A stretch of DNA of 64,000 bases from Escherichia phage CAU_ECP01. The notes beneath the pieces are model-generated. The model ran no database searches, was not told the DNA's origin, and saw only the letters and a program-made list of their open reading frames with translations. The DNA lies in the sequence record PQ572755.1; one strand, 5' to 3'. The translations under genes were made by a program, and so were the position numbers. Of this stretch, positions 5 to 54,294 are shown one piece after another. The first letter of the stretch is position 1; every line of letters begins with the position of its first letter.

Positions 5-367
5 ATGAAAATTGGAAAAACTTATATCATCAATCCAGAATGTAAAGCTATCTTCGCCAATGAATGCCCACAAAACGCCGATATGCTGGCTTTGATTGAG
101 CTTCATGGTCCTAGTTTTGTTGTAAAAGACATGAACACGGATTATGATGATGATAAATGTGTAACCCGTGTAACTATGCGAGACGGTACTGAATTCGGTT
201 TTGATGGTAAGCCAGGTTCATATTTTGAGCTTTATGATGATGAGTTTAAACACTTCATCGAGGTATCTCCAGAGTCTATTTCTAAACAATCACTCATCTT
301 TGAAGTGACTACGGAAAATGCTCGAGATGTGATTGCAGAAATTAAAGAAATTTTTGGAATAAAATAG
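5..367 (+). CDS. hypothetical protein (frd-upstream small gene); may extend upstream of the window
   Basis: 120-aa ORF starting 4 nt from the window edge; its stop codon is embedded in the downstream early promoter. Confidence 0.45.
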   Translation: MKIGKTYIINPECKAIFANECPQNADMLALIELHGPSFVVKDMNTDYDDDKCVTRVTMRDGTEFGFDGKPGSYFELYDDEFKHFIEVSPESISKQSLIFEVTTENARDVIAEIKEIFGIK

Positions 368-396
368 TATACAACAGGGTAATGGTGTGATACTAT
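367..396 (+). promoter_or_regulatory. T4-type early promoter (variant -35 GTATAC, -10 TACTAT)
   Basis: GTATAC 367-372, 18-bp spacer, TACTAT 391-396; perfect 10-bp inverted repeat ACAGGGTAAT/ATTACCCTGT (373-382/395-404) flanks the -10. Confidence 0.5.
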
Positions 397-432
397 TACC
401 CTGTCAAAACAAATGAAGCAACGGAGAATAAA

Positions 433-6392: not shown

Positions 6393-6406
6393 GGGACTTC
6401 GGTCCC
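6393..6406 (+). other. UUCG-tetraloop stem-loop (GGGAC-UUCG-GUCCC) after nrdB, no U-tract
   Basis: Perfect 5-bp GC stem with UUCG loop 5 nt after nrdB stop. Confidence 0.5.
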
Positions 6407-6414
6407 ACTTTATT

Positions 6415-6825
6415 ATGAAAGATATTGCCGCCGAATATTCCTTTATTAAATATACAGAATTGGAGCTATTAGAAGATGCAACAATTAAAACAGTTGATGT
6501 CCCTAATAAGAAAAATGTCATATACGCTATTGCTATAGATGACGAACTTGTGTATATTGGTAAAACCAAGAATTTAAAGAAACGCATTAACTATTATCGA
6601 ACAGCCATAAATCGAAAAGACCAGACTTCAGATTCAAGAAAATCACTTATGATTTTGGATGCCTTAATGCAAGGCAAAAAGGTTGAATTCTGGGCCCGCC
6701 AATGTTTTGACCTTTCAGTCACCAACGAACTTGGTTCAATGACCATCGCAACAATGGACCTTGAAGAACCGCTTTTTATCAAAAAGTTCAACCCGCCTTG
6801 GAATATCCAACATAAGAAAAAGTAG
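6415..6825 (+). CDS. denA: endonuclease II (GIY-YIG nuclease)
   Basis: 136 aa as in T4 DenA; GIY-YIG-like motif VIYAIAIDDELVYIGKTKNLKKRINYY; position after nrdB as in T4. Confidence 0.8.
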   Translation: MKDIAAEYSFIKYTELELLEDATIKTVDVPNKKNVIYAIAIDDELVYIGKTKNLKKRINYYRTAINRKDQTSDSRKSLMILDALMQGKKVEFWARQCFDLSVTNELGSMTIATMDLEEPLFIKKFNPPWNIQHKKK

Positions 6826-6854
6826 TTTACATACCACAAGGATTGTGGTACAAT
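6825..6854 (+). promoter_or_regulatory. T4-type early promoter
   Basis: GTTTAC 6825-6830 overlapping denA stop TAG; 18-bp spacer; TACAAT 6849-6854; spacer inverted repeat ACCACA/TGTGGT. Confidence 0.6.
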
Positions 6855-8007: not shown

Positions 8008-8037
8008 GTTTACAAACACCAAGGAAGGTGTTACTAT
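8008..8037 (+). promoter_or_regulatory. T4-type early promoter
   Basis: GTTTAC 8008-8013, 18-bp spacer, TACTAT 8032-8037; spacer inverted repeat ACACC/GGTGT. Confidence 0.6.
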
Positions 8038-9199: not shown

Positions 9200-9414
9200 C
9201 TAAAGAACAGCATGAATACATTAAAGGGCTTATCTATGAATCTGAAATGGCGGCTATGATTTATGGGCGCCAGATTCAACGATTAGAATCTTTGCCTCCG
9301 ACTAATGACCGCTTGTTAGTTCAGTCTCGTGCTAATCTGAAAAATGAATATCAGAATAAGTGGGCAGTAGCGACTAAAGCTCTTCACGAGTATATTGAAT
9401 CTTTAGTAAAATAG
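9190..9414 (+). CDS. hypothetical protein
   Basis: 74-aa ORF overlapping o-spanin end by 10 nt. Confidence 0.4.
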   Translation: MPMTKEQHEYIKGLIYESEMAAMIYGRQIQRLESLPPTNDRLLVQSRANLKNEYQNKWAVATKALHEYIESLVK

Positions 9415-9443
9415 TTTACAAACTCTCAGGAGCAGAGTATAAT
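9414..9443 (+). promoter_or_regulatory. T4-type early promoter
   Basis: GTTTAC 9414-9419 overlapping upstream stop TAG; TATAAT 9438-9443; GGAGC/GCTCC inverted repeat flanks the -10. Confidence 0.6.
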
Positions 9444-9471
9444 GCTCCTATGGATAATTGAGGAAATCTAA

Positions 9472-11539: not shown

Positions 11540-11569
11540 GTTTACAACATGGTGGAGTTGTGATACTAT
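11540..11569 (+). promoter_or_regulatory. T4-type early promoter
   Basis: GTTTAC 11540-11545, 18-bp spacer, TACTAT 11564-11569; near-perfect inverted repeat GGTGGAGTT/AACTCTACC. Confidence 0.6.
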
Positions 11570-11598
11570 AACTCTACCAACACAATGAGGAAATCGAA

Positions 11599-11955: not shown

Positions 11956-12948
11956 ATGTTACCTGTCGTCGGAAAACTTATTTCTCCAAAAGAACTGGCT
12001 GAGATTATTCCTTTGTCGGAAGCTTACGCATCACAAGTGGCTTCTCATCGCGAACAAGTTAATTCGATTATGAACGGTGAAGACCCACGCAAACTTATTG
12101 TTGTAGGTCCTTGTTCAATTCATGACCCTATTGCTGCTGTTGAATACGGCAAACGTCTGGCTGAACTTCAAACTCGTCTTCCTAATGTTCTGTTAGTGAT
12201 GCGCGTTTATTTTGAAAAGCCTCGAACTACCGTAGGTTGGAAAGGTCTTGTAAATGATCCATATCTTGACGGAAGTTTTGATATGAACCACGGTCTTATA
12301 GTTGCACGAACATTGTGTCGTAAACTTCTACGTATGGGACTTCCATTAGCAACTGAAGTATTAGACCCATTCACGATTAAGTATCTTTCTGGTATTTTCT
12401 CATGGGTTGCTATTGGCGCCCGTACGACTGAAAGTCAGACACATCGTGAAATTGCTTCAGGTCTACCGATGTGCGTAGGCTTCAAGAACGCAACCAATGG
12501 TTCTATTAAAGTAGCTACAGACGCGATGTATAGTGCCGCCTGGCCTCATCGGTATATGGGTATGGACGTCGATGGTACTGTAGGCATTGTTGAAGCTGAA
12601 GGTAATCAGAATACGCATATCGTATTGCGTGGCGGGACCAACGGCCCGAACTATCATTCTTCTGATATTCAAGAAGCTTCTAACAAAGCAAGGGCAGTAG
12701 GTCTGAATCATTATGTAATGGTTGACTGTAGCCATGCAAACGCTGATGGGCATTATAGCAATCAAATTGGTATTGGTAAAAATTTAGCAGCTAATGATTT
12801 GGTCAAAGGAATTATGATAGAATCGTTCCTACATGAAGGAAATCAAAAAATTTCTGATAATATGTCCTATGGCGTTTCCGTTACCGATGCGTGCATCAGT
12901 TGGGAACAAACTAAAGAGCTGTTAACTTATATTAATAAGGTTCAATAA
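11956..12948 (+). CDS. 3-deoxy-D-arabino-heptulosonate 7-phosphate (DAHP) synthase homolog, class I alpha (AroG/AroF/AroH type)
   Basis: 330 aa; GPCSIHD, RVYFEKPRTTVGWKGLVNDP, GARTTESQTHRE, DCSHAN, ESFLHEGNQ, TDACISWE align with E. coli AroG; AAGGA SD; stop overlaps cd start (TAATG). Confidence 0.85.
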   Translation: MLPVVGKLISPKELAEIIPLSEAYASQVASHREQVNSIMNGEDPRKLIVVGPCSIHDPIAAVEYGKRLAELQTRLPNVLLVMRVYFEKPRTTVGWKGLVNDPYLDGSFDMNHGLIVARTLCRKLLRMGLPLATEVLDPFTIKYLSGIFSWVAIGARTTESQTHREIASGLPMCVGFKNATNGSIKVATDAMYSAAWPHRYMGMDVDGTVGIVEAEGNQNTHIVLRGGTNGPNYHSSDIQEASNKARAVGLNHYVMVDCSHANADGHYSNQIGIGKNLAANDLVKGIMIESFLHEGNQKISDNMSYGVSVTDACISWEQTKELLTYINKVQ

Positions 12949-14933: not shown

Positions 14934-14938
14934 TTTTA

Positions 14939-14960
14939 GGGAGACTTCGGTCTCCCTTTT
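14939..14960 (+). terminator. intrinsic terminator, GGGAGAC-UUCG-GUCUCCC plus U-tract
   Basis: 7-bp GC stem, UUCG tetraloop, TTTT at 14957-14960. Confidence 0.8.
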
Positions 14961-14992: not shown

Positions 14993-15021
14993 GTTTACTC
15001 TCCTGTAGGATGTGTTACTAT
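14993..15021 (+). promoter_or_regulatory. T4-type early promoter
   Basis: GTTTAC 14993-14998, 17-bp spacer, TACTAT 15016-15021. Confidence 0.6.
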
Positions 15022-15436: not shown

Positions 15437-15465
15437 GTTTACTTTGGTACAGGTTATGTTATTAT
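15437..15465 (+). promoter_or_regulatory. T4-type early promoter
   Basis: GTTTAC 15437-15442; -10 TATTAT 15460-15465; perfect 9-bp inverted repeat GGTACAGGT/ACCTGTACC (15446-15454/15468-15476). Confidence 0.55.
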
Positions 15466-15506
15466 ATACCTGTACCAACAAACAACTTAAACATCTGGAG
15501 AATAAA

Positions 15507-15879: not shown

Positions 15880-15895
15880 GGGAGCTTCGGCTCCC
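15880..15895 (+). other. UUCG-tetraloop stem-loop (GGGAGC-UUCG-GCUCCC), no U-tract
   Basis: 6-bp stem with UUCG loop just upstream of the SD of the next gene. Confidence 0.45.
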
Positions 15896-15907: not shown

Positions 15908-16522
15908 ATGTTTAAAGTTAATACTTTTTATAAAATGAATTTTAAAAATGGGGATATTACTCCACGCCTTAAAAACATGTTCTCATATGACCTTATCGAG
16001 CCTTTTGAAGTTTTAGAAGTTACTGATGCCGGCTCAGTTTGTGAAATTAGAACTTCTGAAGGTAAAATTTATCAGGCAGGTGTCGGTAAATTCAGTAATT
16101 GTTTTACTTTAATATTCTCGACTGATTTAGATGAGCATTTTATTGAATGCCCTAACCCTAAGGTCTACGAAGTTCCACATCAAGAAATTAAGAAAAATGG
16201 CCCGCACGAATATACGAAGGTTGAAACTCCTCACGGCGTGATGTGGCGTCATAACTCTCCTTTTGGAAGTAAAGGAACATTTGCTCAACCGTCTAAACCT
16301 TATGACGATGAAAAATACATCGTCGTCTTTTTATCTGAACAGGGTACTCAAGACCGTGGATGCCAACGAAGTGGTTTACTAAGTGAACTTGAAGCTCATA
16401 ACCAAGCACGTGAATTCGTTGAGAAAAATCCTGGTTCTGAAGCTCTAGTCATGAAAGCAATTACTCAATATATCACTGCTCAACCTGTTGTTCATCCGGT
16501 AGAAATTAATTTCGTTAAGTAG
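15908..16522 (+). CDS. hypothetical protein
   Basis: 204-aa ORF. Confidence 0.5.
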   Translation: MFKVNTFYKMNFKNGDITPRLKNMFSYDLIEPFEVLEVTDAGSVCEIRTSEGKIYQAGVGKFSNCFTLIFSTDLDEHFIECPNPKVYEVPHQEIKKNGPHEYTKVETPHGVMWRHNSPFGSKGTFAQPSKPYDDEKYIVVFLSEQGTQDRGCQRSGLLSELEAHNQAREFVEKNPGSEALVMKAITQYITAQPVVHPVEINFVK

Positions 16523-16552
16523 TTTACATCCAAGGACGGATTAGAGTATAAT
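16522..16552 (+). promoter_or_regulatory. T4-type early promoter
   Basis: GTTTAC 16522-16527 directly after upstream stop TAG; TATAAT 16547-16552. Confidence 0.55.
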
Positions 16553-20260: not shown

Positions 20261-22348
20261 ATGTCTGAACAATTAAATGAAGTGTTTGAATCTGAAGGCA
20301 GTCTTCCTGTCGTCAATTTGAACCCTAAAGCTAAAGTTCCACAAGTCTGGAAAATTGGTGATATCGATACAAACATCGTAGTCCGTTTATTCTCTTACCT
20401 TTCCGAAGGCGATGCTGTAAAACAAGTTAAACTTGGTGACAAATACGCTCATGTCGTTATTATGAGTCTGTCTGAAAAGGGTAATCTCGCTGAATTGAAA
20501 AATGGCCTTGGTCCTGCTCCTATTGATGCAATCAACACCATTTTCAATACAGTGTATGAACAGGTTAAAGCTCTTCGTATGGATGCAGTTCTGTTCCGAT
20601 TCCCTACCAAGAAATTGAAAGGACGTGGACAGCAGCTTCAAACTCTTCTTGCTCGTTTAGTTTCTACTAAAACTGGTGGTCGTTTTAAAGTGTTGTCGGC
20701 AATGTATCAATTCACAGGTAAACACACCTATGTGATGATGGTTCGTAAAAATGCCAACATTGAAGATATTAAAGGCATCCCTAACATTAACACAGAGTTG
20801 TACACGAAAGTAGATTCTGATGTTGGCGAAGTTTATGTGAGTAAAAAGACTGGTGAAAAGGTCACCAAAGAAACGGCTATCGCTGGTTCTATTGCTGCTG
20901 TAGAAGAAAAACGTAAAGATAAGCCTGTTATTGCTCGTACTAAAATTTCTCGTCGTGCTATTGCAGCAAGTCAATCTTTAGAAGCTGACCGACAAGAAGG
21001 TGAGTTATTCCAGAAATACGAAAATTCTGCTAAAGAAGTTAGTGGCCCAGCTACAGCCGAATTACTTCCTGAAGCATATGAAATTGTACTAGCCCAAGCA
21101 TCGTCCACAGCAAAAGGCACTTTAGTTGCTGATATCGAAAATAAGATTTATAATCGTATTGATGAATCCTTTAAATTTGCTGATGAAGTTTCTTATGGTA
21201 GTGTTATTAAGCCGACTTTAGAAAAGTTTGCTAAGAAAATTAAAACTGAAAAAACAACATCTGTTAAAGCATTAGCCGCTTTTGTTGAAGCTGCAAACGA
21301 AATTGCAGACTCTATTAGAGACGAATGGTTTGAAGATTTTAGACGTGATAATTTCCAACTGCCTGACGATGTTTTAGCTGAAGTATCTGAAAGAACTTGG
21401 AAACAACGTAAATCAGCGTTCTTGTCTAATGTGATGTATACTTATGCACGAGAATCGGCTAGAGGCACCTTTAATATAACAATGAATCGGGACCCTAAAC
21501 AATACTCTGTTGCTGAAAAACGAGCTATTCGTGAATATGCCTCTTCTGCGTATACCGATATCAATAATATGTTGTTAGGTCGTTATAAACCAGATTTTTA
21601 CGATGTTGCAGATGAAGATGAAGTTAAACGCGCTATTGATGGTCTTGATTCGGCGTTTTTAAATGGAGACCGTTTACCTGAAGGACTAACGTTATATAGA
21701 GCTCAGTCTATCAGAATGCCTATTTACGAAGCAATGGTTAAAAATAAGGTATTCTACTTCAGAAACTATGTTTCCACTTCACTAGCTCCTATTATTTTCG
21801 GTGGGTTTAAAGAGAACGTTGCCCTTGGACTTGCTCCTGAAGAAGTTCGCAAAGAGCTTAACATTGACAATAATGACGAAGGTGTTACTATTTCTCCTAG
21901 TCAAGTAAGAACAGCTATGCATGCACCAGAACAAATCCGTGTTAACGTTGGATGGGCTATTGATGGCGCCCATAAAGTTAACGTGATTTATCCAGGACAG
22001 TTGAGTAATCACCCTAATGAGCAAGAAATTATTTTGCCTAGAGGCATTCTCTTGCAGATAAATAAAATTACAGATGCGTCATCTGACACTGGTGCAGGTT
22101 TAGAATCCAACCTTAAATTTATTCAAGCTGAAGTCATGTCCTCAGACCAGTTGGATGAAGCTGTCATTTACGATGGTGATGTTCTCATGGAAACAGGCGA
22201 GGTGGTTGCTATGACGGGTGAAATCGAATCAGATGAGCCGGTATCGTTCTCCTCATTTGTAGAAAAAACTAGTGCTCCTAAAGGATTGAAACTGTTAGCA
22301 TCTTTAATGGATTTGGAATCGGTTCCGTTTAAATTTGTTCAAGGATAG
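20261..22348 (+). CDS. alt: ADP-ribosyltransferase Alt (head-packaged)
   Basis: 695 aa; position between gene 30 and gene 54 as in T4; ART-like R / S-T-S / E motifs (LYRAQS, YVSTSL, QEIILPRG). Confidence 0.75.
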   Translation: MSEQLNEVFESEGSLPVVNLNPKAKVPQVWKIGDIDTNIVVRLFSYLSEGDAVKQVKLGDKYAHVVIMSLSEKGNLAELKNGLGPAPIDAINTIFNTVYEQVKALRMDAVLFRFPTKKLKGRGQQLQTLLARLVSTKTGGRFKVLSAMYQFTGKHTYVMMVRKNANIEDIKGIPNINTELYTKVDSDVGEVYVSKKTGEKVTKETAIAGSIAAVEEKRKDKPVIARTKISRRAIAASQSLEADRQEGELFQKYENSAKEVSGPATAELLPEAYEIVLAQASSTAKGTLVADIENKIYNRIDESFKFADEVSYGSVIKPTLEKFAKKIKTEKTTSVKALAAFVEAANEIADSIRDEWFEDFRRDNFQLPDDVLAEVSERTWKQRKSAFLSNVMYTYARESARGTFNITMNRDPKQYSVAEKRAIREYASSAYTDINNMLLGRYKPDFYDVADEDEVKRAIDGLDSAFLNGDRLPEGLTLYRAQSIRMPIYEAMVKNKVFYFRNYVSTSLAPIIFGGFKENVALGLAPEEVRKELNIDNNDEGVTISPSQVRTAMHAPEQIRVNVGWAIDGAHKVNVIYPGQLSNHPNEQEIILPRGILLQINKITDASSDTGAGLESNLKFIQAEVMSSDQLDEAVIYDGDVLMETGEVVAMTGEIESDEPVSFSSFVEKTSAPKGLKLLASLMDLESVPFKFVQG

Positions 22349-22377
22349 TTTACAAGCACATGGATGTGTGATACTAT
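22348..22377 (+). promoter_or_regulatory. T4-type early promoter
   Basis: GTTTAC 22348-22353 overlapping alt stop TAG; TACTAT 22372-22377; GGATG/CATCC inverted repeat flanks the -10. Confidence 0.6.
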
Positions 22378-22406
22378 CATCCTATCAACAACATGAGGAA
22401 AACGTT

Positions 22407-22700: not shown

Positions 22701-22709
22701 ACCCCTAAA

Positions 22710-22733
22710 GGGAGACAACGTCTCCCTTTTTTT
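22710..22733. terminator. terminator between convergent genes (GGGAGA-CAACG-UCUCCC plus T7)
   Basis: Hairpin 22710-22726 followed by TTTTTTT; lies between the plus-strand ORF and gene 54. Confidence 0.7.
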
Positions 22734-36624: not shown

Positions 36625-36656
36625 AAAAAAGGGGACCTTTACGGTCCCCTTTTTTT
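36625..36656. terminator. bidirectional intrinsic terminator (A6-GGGGACC-uuuac-GGUCCCC-T7)
   Basis: 7-bp GC stem flanked by A-run and T-run, between convergent rnlB and gene 24. Confidence 0.8.
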
Positions 36657-37939
36657 CATTCATCTATAATAATTTTAGGCAATTTAACACCAAGTAAAAC
36701 AGACAAGTCTGAACGTCCTGCCATTTTATCCATGTCCCCGCCATCAATTATTCTCGCTTCTTTTTCGTCTTTTGCTACTGTGTAAGGATTTGCTGATAAA
36801 GCGTATCTAACCAATAAACCAATAGACGGTTGCAAGCTTTCTGGATCAACTACAACTTTAAATGCACCAACATGTTCAGGGTCATCTAAGTCGAGACCTT
36901 CTGTATACGGGGCATAGAAAATTGATCCAACAATTTCTTTTTCACCGATATTTTCTACTACGCCAACGATCACATAATCTAATGGACTGTTAGTATCGCA
37001 ATAAAGCGGTAAACCATTAGCTAAGAACCCGTAAGCATTTTGTGAAAGATACTTATCATCTTCTGGTTTATGTTTTAACCAACCTGAAGCAGCAAGAATA
37101 GCAGCTGCACGAGCTGAAGCTACACAAAACGTCGCAGTATAAGTTGACTCTTTTTGAATGTGTGATACCATTTCACACACCATTCGATATAACGAACGAC
37201 CTGCTTCTGGAGCGGATGCATAGCTCAAGTCAATAAATCCGGTGTCAGTAATTCCAGTAACTTTATAACGTTTCGATACCGTAATTAAAGACTGAAGAAT
37301 ATCTTTATTAATTTCATCAGCCATTTCAGTAGCAAGCAAATCTTCTAAGAAGTTAGGGGCATCAAATCCATTCGCTTCCAAATCTTGCGCTAATTCAACC
37401 GTGAGGCCGGTTTTAAGTTTACGAGATTTGACTGAAGTTTGCCATTTATTAATTTGGAATCTTGCATCAGAAATTTCGCTACCGGAGCTTTCAAATTTGC
37501 TTGTCACCGCTGCATCTGAAAATAACCGTACCTTTAAATGAACAACTGCAATCTGAAGAGCTAATTCTAGATCACTTTCTTGAATATCTGCAAATGGTGT
37601 ATCTTCTAGCACTTTATAGACGATATTATTATATTTGAAAAAATCGCCTTTATTTAGTGTGACTTTTGATTCTTCTGTGAGCTCGGTAATTTTTTCTCGG
37701 TCTACATATCCAGCTTCACCTGCATAAGTAGCACCAGTTTTAAACGTTAATTCGTTGTCTGGGTTAAGATATTTAATACCATAAAAAGCAGCAACAGGTT
37801 GATTAGTTCTTTGTGTTGCTACAATGTCAGAATATATTAATTTAGTCGTAGCGCGAGTCAAAGCAACGAGATTTGGGCGACCGATTGAGTTGCTAGTAGA
37901 CGTTGTAGATTCACGCAATAATTTTTGGATTTTACTCAT
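36656..37939 (-). CDS. 24: head vertex protein gp24
   Basis: 427 aa; near-identical to T4 gp24 from memory. Confidence 0.9.
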   Translation of the reverse strand: MSKIQKLLRESTTSTSNSIGRPNLVALTRATTKLIYSDIVATQRTNQPVAAFYGIKYLNPDNELTFKTGATYAGEAGYVDREKITELTEESKVTLNKGDFFKYNNIVYKVLEDTPFADIQESDLELALQIAVVHLKVRLFSDAAVTSKFESSGSEISDARFQINKWQTSVKSRKLKTGLTVELAQDLEANGFDAPNFLEDLLATEMADEINKDILQSLITVSKRYKVTGITDTGFIDLSYASAPEAGRSLYRMVCEMVSHIQKESTYTATFCVASARAAAILAASGWLKHKPEDDKYLSQNAYGFLANGLPLYCDTNSPLDYVIVGVVENIGEKEIVGSIFYAPYTEGLDLDDPEHVGAFKVVVDPESLQPSIGLLVRYALSANPYTVAKDEKEARIIDGGDMDKMAGRSDLSVLLGVKLPKIIIDE

Positions 37940-52743: not shown

Positions 52744-54294
52744 TTAGTAATGGACTTTAATAATATAATTTAAAGATATATTCCATGGACGAGTCTCATA
52801 TCCGATAAGTCCTTCACGGTTAAGAGTGCCTGTTGCGTCGCGGTGACCACCTAATTCGAAGCCGTCATTTGTGAAATATGATGCGTTATCCCAATCAGCG
52901 TATTTTCTAGTACCCAAATAACCTTGATATACGGACGCTCCGAATGGTGCCTCATGACGTTGATATTCGCCCCATCCACCAGCGTGTTTATGATATGACA
53001 TTTGCTGTGCTTGGACACCACCAACATGCATACCGTCACATCCTACACCTAATCTATCCTTTCCATAGCCGTCTTGACCGCGATTATTTAAAATATGGCT
53101 GCCTGTACCAGCTCCTCTAACAAAAAGACCGCGCATGTCTGGAATTCCAGGATTATTCCAATCACCGCCAAATCTCGTTCCAACCACATTTCGATAGTCC
53201 GGAAATTGGTTCCCAGAAACGGTCCCGCCATGACATAAAACCCAACCTGGAGGAGCGCTATCACCTGCGAACATTTGAATTGTTCCAACAGGAACACGTT
53301 CAGATGCATATCGCTCTGTTGCAACCGGCTGGTCACCGTTTTTCCACATTCCGCCACGTGACCAAATTCCATTTGCTGTGAGATGGTCTAAATTTAAAGA
53401 ACCATTAATAGTTTGCCCACCGCGTGTATTAATTACATCCGCGTTCCATGCTAATGCTCCAGAGCTATCGCCTTCGGGTGCAACACCGGCCTGCGTCGTT
53501 AATTTTACGACTCCACGCATAGAACCGGTAGCTCCTCTACCATTTAGCGTTTCACCTGTTACAGCAACATCTCCTAAATTACTATTAATTTCCGCTTGTG
53601 TTCCTAGACGTATAACACCTTTATATTCTTGTGTTGCAACAGAATTCATAAAGGTGTATGGGGAAATTGCATATCCTTCGCGAAGAGTTCCTTGACGTGT
53701 TTGAGCCACCGTAGCTAAACGCACAACACCGGTAATAGATTCTGAAGCCGGGTCGTTATTAGGAGCTATTTGAGAAATTAATTTTATTGCTAATTGCTGA
53801 GTTTTAAGCGGTGTCATTGCCGTGGTATCATCAGACCCGGCAAGTGCAGCGGTTTGAGTTGCAATTTTAATAACACCATTAGTTGTTTCGGTGGAATAAC
53901 GAGTAGAGAACGTGTTATCAATAGTTTGGTCTAATTTAAGCGGAGTAATAGAAACAGTGTCTAAAGTGCCGGCAATGGCTTCCTCTTGTGTTGCATATTT
54001 AGTTACACCGTATTGTGTTTCTGACGCGTTCGGATACTGAAGTCTTGCATTTAATGTGGCGGGTGTAACGGCTTTAGTACTATTAAATCCATCAAGAACT
54101 TCTTGTTCTGTCGCTAATTGAATTACACCTTTTTCTGCTTCACTTGCGTCCGGAACACCTTTAACACCATACGCGCTAATTGAGGCTAAGGCTGCCTGGA
54201 CATTGGTTATTGAACTATCAAAATTTGACCCGGTAGGGTCAAATTCAACATATACAGATTCGTTCGAAACGTGTTGATATGTATTGTTACTCAT
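52744..54294 (-). CDS. 12: short tail fibre protein gp12
   Basis: 516 aa (T4 gp12 527 aa); synteny. Confidence 0.8.

Follow-up and report, generated by a model that had tools for sequence, protein, structure and literature searches.

Promoter-early stem-loops (PeSLs) are the closest described counterparts of the elements that we analyse here in a 64,000-nucleotide stretch of Escherichia phage CAU_ECP01 (record PQ572755.1; the window, hereafter), in which inverted repeats bracket the -10 element of several early promoters. Arbiol et al. (2010) described ~50 PeSLs per genome in phages RB49 and phi1, with the stem-loop mostly between the -35 and -10 elements or over the -10; they proposed a terminator or attenuator role, showed recombination between PeSLs and reported that lacZ placed behind one RB49 stem-loop was reduced, as by a strong terminator (PMC2839356). 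PeSLs were later described by Comeau et al. (2014) in the PST/T4 (TTTACW-N17-TAYWAT) and nt-1/KVP40 phages (PMC4122927). According to both papers, Repoila et al. (1994) had found AT-rich promoter/stem-loops of variable size flanking the IP genes of T-even phages. T4 also has translational-control hairpins that contain a promoter, in genes e, soc, 49 and I-TevI (PMC3014915).

The element studied here represents, in a Mosigvirus, the PeSL motif already described, and its novelty is low. Shared features are a strong sigma-70-type early promoter, an AT-rich upstream region, a stem-loop and a short intergenic region before the Shine–Dalgarno (SD) sequence and ATG, in many copies per genome. Published PeSLs also occur at junctions of variable genes. 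In the window, the promoter and the intergenic position before an SD and start codon are found throughout, and four sites have a significant stem-loop (z of -3.2 to -5.1), which the promoter at 22348 individually lacks; site 1 lies at a homology breakpoint, and the other sites flank conserved genes. RB49 promoters differ in being TTGACA-type with G-tract/C-tract stems, whereas those here are GTTTAC-type with AT-richer stems that are unlike at each site. In the text of PMC2839356 and PMC4122927 we saw no statistical evaluation of the form that brackets the -10, of its fixed register and G·U polarity, or of the trade-off with terminators described below. The T4 promoters of ipI, ipII and ipIII rank with the strongest in our scan (stems of 9-14 bp); the IP elements were described for IP loci only, going by the account in PMC2839356, and discussed as recombination sites. 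As in e, soc, 49 and I-TevI, the promoter lies between or within the arms, RNA initiated upstream can fold and RNA initiated at the promoter lacks the 5' arm. The promoter in those genes is late (or middle), however, and the 3' arm sequesters the SD/AUG, whereas the promoters studied here are early, 10-20 nt usually separate the end of the 3' arm from the SD and the predicted accessibility of the ribosome site is unchanged; there are a few exceptions, for example the T4 promoter at 130310. Neither the main T4 transcription review nor the RB69 genome paper mentions dyad symmetry in promoters.

Hairpins embedded in early promoters

Megablast identifies the window as part of a T4-like phage, with Escherichia phage LH01 99% and ATK47 97.6% identical; ATK47 is classified as a Mosigvirus (RB69 group) and the window was assigned likewise, T4 itself being only ~70-80% identical. 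The window begins in the frd/td/nrdA region, and its + strand, on which sites 1-5 and the spacer hairpins described below lie, corresponds to the early-transcription strand of T4. The promoter motif GTTTAC-N17-19-TAnnnT has 11 matches on the + strand of the window and 0 on the - strand; in T4 it has 41 on the early strand and 2 on the opposite one. This strand bias establishes the window sites as genuine T4-type early promoters. Promoters of the form GTTTAC/TTTACA-N17-TGnTAnnnT start at 367, 6825, 8008, 9414, 11540, 15437 and 22348; the first has a degenerate -35 (GTATAC) and was picked up with one mismatch allowed. Those bearing repeats are intergenic and lead into an early gene with its SD and start codon.

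All of the inverted repeats listed in the earlier note exist in the sequence, and a repeat finder independently returned sites 1 and 2; several extents needed adjustment. At site 1, the TAG (365-367) that ends the upstream open reading frame (ORF; 5-367) overlaps the degenerate -35 GTATAC/TATACA (367-373). The 5' arm occupies 374-387, with a perfect 10-nt core ACAGGGTAAT at 374-383 (one position downstream of the placement in the earlier note, which had the right arm correct) and G·U pairs that extend it to 387. The extended -10 TGaTACTAT (388-396; TG at 388-389, hexamer TACTAT at 391-396), a form (gTGaTACTAT) also present in T4 early promoters, falls in the loop or apical part of the hairpin. 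The 3' arm (391-404, core ATTACCCTGT at 395-404) spans the discriminator and the start expected at ~403 from sigma-70 geometry (+1 ~7 nt past the -10). The SD GGAG (423-426) and the ATG (433-435) of an frd.1 homologue (433-681) follow. Scored against dinucleotide shuffles, as were the RNA folds of the other sites, the 14-pair stem including G·U (374-387 with 391-404) reaches -19.1 kcal/mol (z -5.1).

Two further sites are strong. Site 2, the promoter 5' of a 30.7 homologue (15437-15478, -10 TATTAT at 15460-15465), has arms TTGGTACAGGT (15444-15454) and ACCTGTACCAA (15468-15478) that pair perfectly over 11 bp, longer than the 9 bp first noted (-18.2 kcal/mol, z -4.8). Site 3, 5' of a cd.2 homologue (11540-11579, -10 TACTAT at 11564-11569), pairs TGGTGGAGTT (11550-11559) with AACTCTACCA (11570-11579) in 10 pairs including one G·U, where 8 of 9 had been counted (-16.9 kcal/mol, z -4.6). 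Site 4 (9414-9449, GTTTAC-N18-TATAAT) is moderate: AGGAGCA (9428-9434) and TGCTCCT (9443-9449) flank the -10 in a 7-bp rather than a 5-bp stem (-12.2 kcal/mol, z -3.2). At site 5, the promoter 5' of an alt.-3 homologue (22348-22382), the noted repeat GGATG (22362-22366)/CATCC (22378-22382), to which the spacer hairpin GCACA-tgga-TGTGT is an alternative, is on its own at chance level (-5.1 kcal/mol, z 0.0). Two promoters carry hairpins within the spacer, each slightly longer than first described (6833-6849 and 8016-8031). The promoter at 6825-6854 (GTTTAC-N18-TACAAT) has UACCACAA-GGA-UUGUGGUA, with arms at 6832-6839 and 6843-6850 (fold at 6826, -8.3 kcal/mol, z -2.5), and that at 8008-8037 has AACACC-aaggaa-GGTGTT, with arms at 8015-8020 and 8027-8032, which is individually weak (fold at 8009, -7.3 kcal/mol, z -1.2). 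Rfam covariance models gave no match at the gathering threshold in window positions 1-24000.

The number of repeats in the window is uninformative and their location alone is informative. The 64 kb contain 6 perfect spaced inverted repeats (arm of at least 9, loop of 3-20), compared with 5.9 ± 1.5 in shuffles, and thus show no overall excess. Two of the six fall within the ~540 bp of early promoters (0.8% of the window), where ~0.05 are expected; the others are mostly terminators. As a control that keeps position-specific composition, we paired each spacer with the post--10 segment of its own promoter or of other promoters. Confined to the 11 GTTTAC promoters of the window, this comparison gives p ~0.08. 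Eleven promoters being too few, we brought in T4 and 52 diverse T4-like loci, taken as ±10 kb around the dCMP deaminase gene on the basis of Cd alignments (55-99% identity, plus one weak partial match at 33%). A search of IMG/VR with the 30.7 protein had returned just 14 near-identical loci, and the Cd-based set with its 10-kb flanks was used instead. In T4 (41 promoters), the mean longest Watson–Crick run is 5.24 compared with 3.93 in cross pairs (0 of 20,000 permutations reach the observed value), and runs of at least 6 bp occur in 39% of own pairs and 6.6% of cross pairs. The window, T4 and the 52 loci together yield 188 unique promoters, of which 40% attain a stem score of at least 6, compared with 7% of cross pairs; after filtering to <80% identity, the minimum free energy (MFE) is -10 kcal/mol or lower in 35% of promoters and 4.5% of chimeras.

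The pairing also has a fixed register. In a gapless alignment of 93 promoters its centre falls on bases 1 and 2 of the -10 hexamer, with 47.8% of cells paired compared with 41.9 ± 1.2 in shuffles (0 of 500) and 35-40% when the register is slid by 1-3 columns. The hairpin that brackets the -10 is therefore solid as a feature of the class, beyond chance.

Covariation and strand polarity of the stems

The earlier note staked its proposal on the arms being conserved or covarying in related phages, and the alignments of early-promoter arms across relatives bear this out. Positional orthologues of site 3 in 14 phages use differing stems, including GGTGGAGTT/AACTCTACC, GGTAGAGTT/AGCTCTACC, (T/C)GGTAGGACT/AGTCCTACC(A/G), GATAGGAC/GTCCTATC, CCGGAAGT/ACTTCCGG and CTGGAAG/CTTCCAG. 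Pairing holds in 85.7% of the cells of these orthologues, both sides have changed in 9 of 10 pairs and the covariation score is 0.638, compared with 0.309 in shuffles (0 of 500) and at most 0.18 when slid. At the position of site 1, 5' of frd.1, phages have four unrelated stems, every one of them paired: ACAGGGTAAT/ATTACCCTGT occurs in the window, AGGGTAGT/ATTACCCT in T4, a third stem as (AA)GGCTAT/ATAGCC(TT) in loci L074-L084 and as ATAGGGTT/AGCCCTAT in APCEc01 and SSE1, and ATGGGGC/GTCCCAT in L077 and L081. RNAalifold returned a meaningless consensus for the site 1 orthologues (-0.56 kcal/mol) and is uninformative there because the stems are unrelated and their registers differ. The stem of site 2 is conserved in sequence in T4 and other genera, and the paralogues of site 4 covary (GGGACCA/TGGTCCC in the T4 motB promoter, TGGGAGCA/TGCTCCCA in L031). 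Arm sequences thus vary by promoter and by orthologue and complementarity alone is retained; compensatory changes in orthologous stems indicate that pairing is under purifying selection.

Two other arrangements recur among these promoters. A spacer motif, (C)CAC-AAGGA-N-GTG(G), is found in the window at 6831-6848, 8014-8031 and 16528-16546 and in the T4 promoters at 2458, 50973 and 167086, and recurs in other loci. Its stem covaries (CCACAA/TTGTGG, ACACC/GGTGT, GCAC/GTGC, ATCC/GGAT) around a conserved AAGGA loop, and it could be an independent sequence motif. In a third class of hairpin, a loop of ~19-21 nt separates a 5' arm that adjoins the -10 from a 3' arm immediately ahead of the SD. This form is present ~4.1-5.8 kb upstream of cd in 11 loci (L023, L026, L027, L030, L038, L044, L046, L050, L054, L056 and L059), and one of its positions covaries in three states (TTGGTT/AACCAA, TTTGTT/AACAAA, TTCGTT/AACGAA).

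Mismatches within the stems are asymmetric between the strands. When stems were identified with equal scores for every type of mismatch, their internal mismatches comprised 11 G·T, no A·C and one of another kind (~10 independent events), whereas chance stems have 21:12:62; the pairs that flank perfect stems are likewise enriched in G·T (G·T:A·C:other of 34:23:51 compared with 292:393:1169). The sense strand of site 3 folds at -16.9 kcal/mol compared with -8.1 (z -0.8) for the antisense strand. Across all promoters the difference in MFE is borderline (-8.98 compared with -8.18, p = 0.056), and a sense–antisense comparison of the 'strong' subset is biased by selection, so that the mismatch-type counts were used instead. 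Together, the G·T mismatches and the fold asymmetry of site 3 place the constraint on the sense strand, which does not fit a protein site in duplex DNA or a symmetric cruciform. From this polarity we infer that the folded molecule is RNA, the non-template DNA strand being less likely.

Operon position and proposed role

Relative to a start placed by sigma-70 spacing, the median 5' arm covers ~-25 to -17 and the median 3' arm ~-4 to +5, with stems of 5-14 bp and loops of 5-23 nt across promoters. With transcription starting within the 3' arm, RNA made from the promoter itself is missing the 5' arm, so that read-through RNA alone can fold. The upstream stop codon typically overlaps or abuts the -35 as TAGTTTAC; in the window, a TAG overlaps the -35 in this way at 365-372 and, as (T)AGTTTAC, at 6823-6830, 9412-9419, 16520-16527 and 22346-22353. 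Among 108 non-redundant promoters, the commonest distances from stop codon to -35 are -1 (25 cases) and +2 (22 cases). Strong hairpins accompany 49% of promoters with a stop within 12 nt of the -35, 20% of those with a longer distance and none of the 8 that have no upstream ORF (p = 1.7e-4).

Gaps of at least 25 nt are organized differently, with a separate hairpin preceding the promoter in 28 of 32 cases and an embedded hairpin in 6 of 32. The separate hairpin is usually a textbook terminator, GGGACTCC-TTCG-GGAGTCCC followed by Ts, and nearly all early intergenic gaps of at least 25 nt in the window fold into one or more stem-loops. The early promoter at 14993 has no hairpin of its own and is preceded by the intrinsic terminator GGGAGAC-TTCG-GTCTCCC with its TTTT (14938-14960, + strand), an 'unpacked' version of the same terminator-plus-promoter arrangement. 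With embedded hairpins at abutting stops and separate terminators in longer gaps, the embedded form looks like a space-saving version of the hairpin-then-promoter layout; the PST/T4 PeSLs, whose legend in PMC4122927 places stem-loops 'just upstream' of the promoter, correspond to the separate form. Intercistronic UUCG terminators share the operon slot of the embedded hairpins, from stop codon to next promoter or SD (window 6393-6406, 14938-14960, 15880-15895), but are compact and GC-rich with a tetraloop and usually a U-tract, whereas the embedded hairpins have a 9-10-nt loop formed by the extended -10 and no U-tract. Promoter-free early gaps in the window hold such UUCG-tetraloop hairpins at 6393-6406, 14938-14960, 15880-15895 and ~20200 (GGGAC-TTCG-GTCCC, GGGAGAC-TTCG-GTCTCCC, GGGAGC-TTCG-GCTCCC and GAGCC-TTCG-GGCTC), some followed by a T-tract and others not.

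These observations are probably best accounted for by a composite element, a PeSL, in which the promoter is combined with a sense-strand RNA hairpin that forms only on read-through and acts as intercistronic punctuation. A sigma-70 early promoter (GTTTAC, ~18 nt, TGnTAnnnT) carries the hairpin within itself: the arms use the only promoter positions that are free to vary, namely the spacer (~-25 to -17) and the stretch from just past the -10 to ~+5, and the extended -10 serves as the loop. Transcripts initiated at the promoter would begin in the 3' arm and be unable to fold, whereas RNA arriving from the upstream gene would fold. The hairpin would stand in for a separate UUCG/U-tract terminator, and most likely would attenuate or pause read-through and/or shield the 3' end of the upstream message, once processed, as a barrier to exonuclease or RNase E; short homologies shared at gene-module junctions may be a side effect. 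Of the possibilities raised in the earlier note, hairpins in read-through transcripts are supported by the sense-strand pairing, the 3' arm over the expected start and the dependence on an abutting upstream gene. Punctuation is the most likely role by analogy with the separate terminators that the hairpins replace and with the one RB49 stem-loop assayed in a lacZ reporter.

Several points weigh against this interpretation or narrow it. A convincing hairpin is present in just ~1/3 to 1/2 of promoters; counts are not fully independent, since the data set includes paralogous and orthologous promoters; and the class with no upstream ORF has only 8 members. Single-stranded DNA also tolerates G·T, which is compatible with folding of the non-template strand. 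A U-rich tail (at least 5 T in the next 9 nt) is absent from all 41 strong embedded hairpins; the tails, which often lead directly into the SD, are 50% A and 21% T, and a terminator scan called no embedded hairpin. On these grounds we rejected the reading as canonical intrinsic terminators. Efficient canonical termination by embedded hairpins is thus unlikely, and a role as attenuator is suggested by analogy. Literature searches on T4-like phages turned up neither structure-probing data nor mapped 3' ends of transcripts, and nothing relevant among 3'-end or transcription-start-site maps for T4. A role at the ribosome site, with the 5' arm keeping the pyrimidine-rich 3' arm off the SD, was dropped, as shuffling the 5' arm had no effect in silico on predicted SD-to-AUG accessibility (0.466 compared with 0.461, p = 0.42), a result that counts against that role only.

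Chance complementarity in AT-rich promoters could draw on the fold of site 5, the window-only permutation result and a repeat total equal to the shuffle expectation; it is opposed by every class-level test and by the concentration of long repeats in promoters, so that its probability is close to nil, being refuted for the class and viable for the 22362-22382 site only. An operator, at which a dimeric phage or host repressor would bind the repeat and shut off early promoters, had been proposed in the earlier note. Dyad symmetry over the core promoter is reminiscent of classical operators, and the shut-off of T4 early promoters is incompletely explained (PMC2988021). The arms, however, differ among promoters and orthologues, with no common arm among GGTACAGGT, ACAGGGTAAT, GGTGGAGTT, GGAGC, GGTAGGACT, CCGGAAGT and others, and complementarity alone is kept. 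Stem length and loop size vary over the ranges given above, the repeat is missing from most early promoters, and a protein site in duplex DNA would not yield strand-specific G·T mismatches. We consider an operator very improbable. A repeat without RNA function, arising as a by-product or substrate of recombination (PeSL-mediated module shuffling, or templated correction of quasi-palindromes in T4-type replication), would accommodate the exact coincidence of site 1 with a homology breakpoint, at which the upstream gene of other Mosigviruses is unrelated and their stem, though still paired, is a different one, as well as the reported PeSL mini-circles and junctions (PMC2839356, PMC4122927) and the statement in the T4 record that the 14-nt loop of the site 3 orthologue was formerly reported inverted. 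Yet homology-driven exchange requires shared sequence rather than intramolecular complementarity; a mutational mechanism predicts neither mismatches confined to G·T, nor a fixed register, nor the trade-off with separate terminators; and the compensatory changes point to selection on pairing. This explanation is unlikely.

The remaining alternatives have the hairpin act at the promoter or on the polymerase. A cruciform or a hairpin in the non-template strand might expose the extended -10 to sigma-70 as a single-stranded loop, giving a pre-melted promoter, or add sensitivity to supercoiling, and so tune promoter strength. In favour of this, melting nucleates at the first bases of the -10, which are also the centre of the hairpin; the G·T bias is compatible as well, since sense and non-template strand are one and the same; and T4 early promoters are unusually strong, with unexplained extra consensus positions (PMC2988021). 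A device for promoter strength should nevertheless be indifferent to the upstream gene, whereas these hairpins need an abutting one and give way to separate terminators. Loops of 8-14 nt and AT-rich stems of 5-11 bp, as here, extrude poorly. A cruciform involves both strands and should show no preference for G·T over A·C, and many promoters of equally good consensus have no repeat at all. DNA-level action is accordingly improbable. We give a comparably small chance, if anything smaller, to a read-through-coupled, pre-melted 'relay' promoter, in which passage of an upstream polymerase or negative supercoiling would fold the non-template strand and display the -10 as a single-stranded loop, or to a U-tract-independent attenuator for the phage-modified polymerase. 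A composite promoter and read-through hairpin thus remains our preferred reading.

Module junctions and neighbouring features

Homology of the window to many other Mosigviruses begins at position 399 or 423, and the ORF at 5-367 is replaced by an unrelated ORF in APCEc01 (L086) and SSE1 (L087). The site 1 promoter-hairpin therefore marks a module junction, which is consistent with the PeSL picture. In T4, an unannotated hydrophobic ORF of ~22 aa (ATGTTCGCACCTTATATTATGGCAGCAGTTATGTTGGTCTGTTTATATCTTTTGATTAAAGCTTGCTAA; ~146020-146095, - strand, L004) lies between the promoter orthologous to site 1 and frd.1, and is absent from the window.

The T4 RefSeq record annotates 14 nt (133300-133313; 33300-33313 of L004) as 'inverted complement of previously reported sequence; corrects the early promoter Pe133295'. 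These 14 nt are exactly the loop between the arms of the site 3 orthologue; the discrepancy suggests either an old hairpin sequencing artefact or a real repeat-mediated inversion. Downstream of site 3, between the cd.2-type genes and cd, the window has a 330-aa ORF (11956-12948) that is annotated in ATK47 as phospho-2-dehydro-3-deoxyheptonate aldolase (AroG-like DAHP synthase); T4 has no DAHP-synthase-like ORF at that position.

Elsewhere in the window, perfect 10-13-bp inverted repeats occur at 22707-22729, 36625-36655 and 54222-54245. AAAGGGAGAC/GTCTCCCTTT and AAAAAAGGGGACC/GGTCCCCTTTTTT resemble bidirectional terminators between convergent genes, and the AATTTGACCC/GGGTCAAATT repeat at 54222 is situated among late genes. 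A TTGACT-type promoter-like sequence in the rnlB/gene 24 region (37143-37190), GTTGAC-N17-TACCAT, has TGTGTGA/TCACACA arms flanking the -10; it is outside the statistics presented here.

No new kind of system is revealed by these elements. To knowledge of PeSLs they add quantitative evidence for a register set on the -10, for compensatory changes in the arms, for G·U polarity and for a trade-off of embedded against separate forms that depends on intergenic space; the mechanism is narrowed to a sense-strand structure that forms only on read-through, and the operator idea is removed. If the relay-promoter version were true, it would help to explain the exceptional strength of T4-type early promoters. 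Promoter-hairpin sites may mark module junctions. Two codes, a promoter and a hairpin, share the same 45 bp, with the arms limited to positions that the polymerase ignores, and for the annotation and engineering of T4-like phages this means that mutations in the spacer or discriminator may unwittingly destroy an RNA element.

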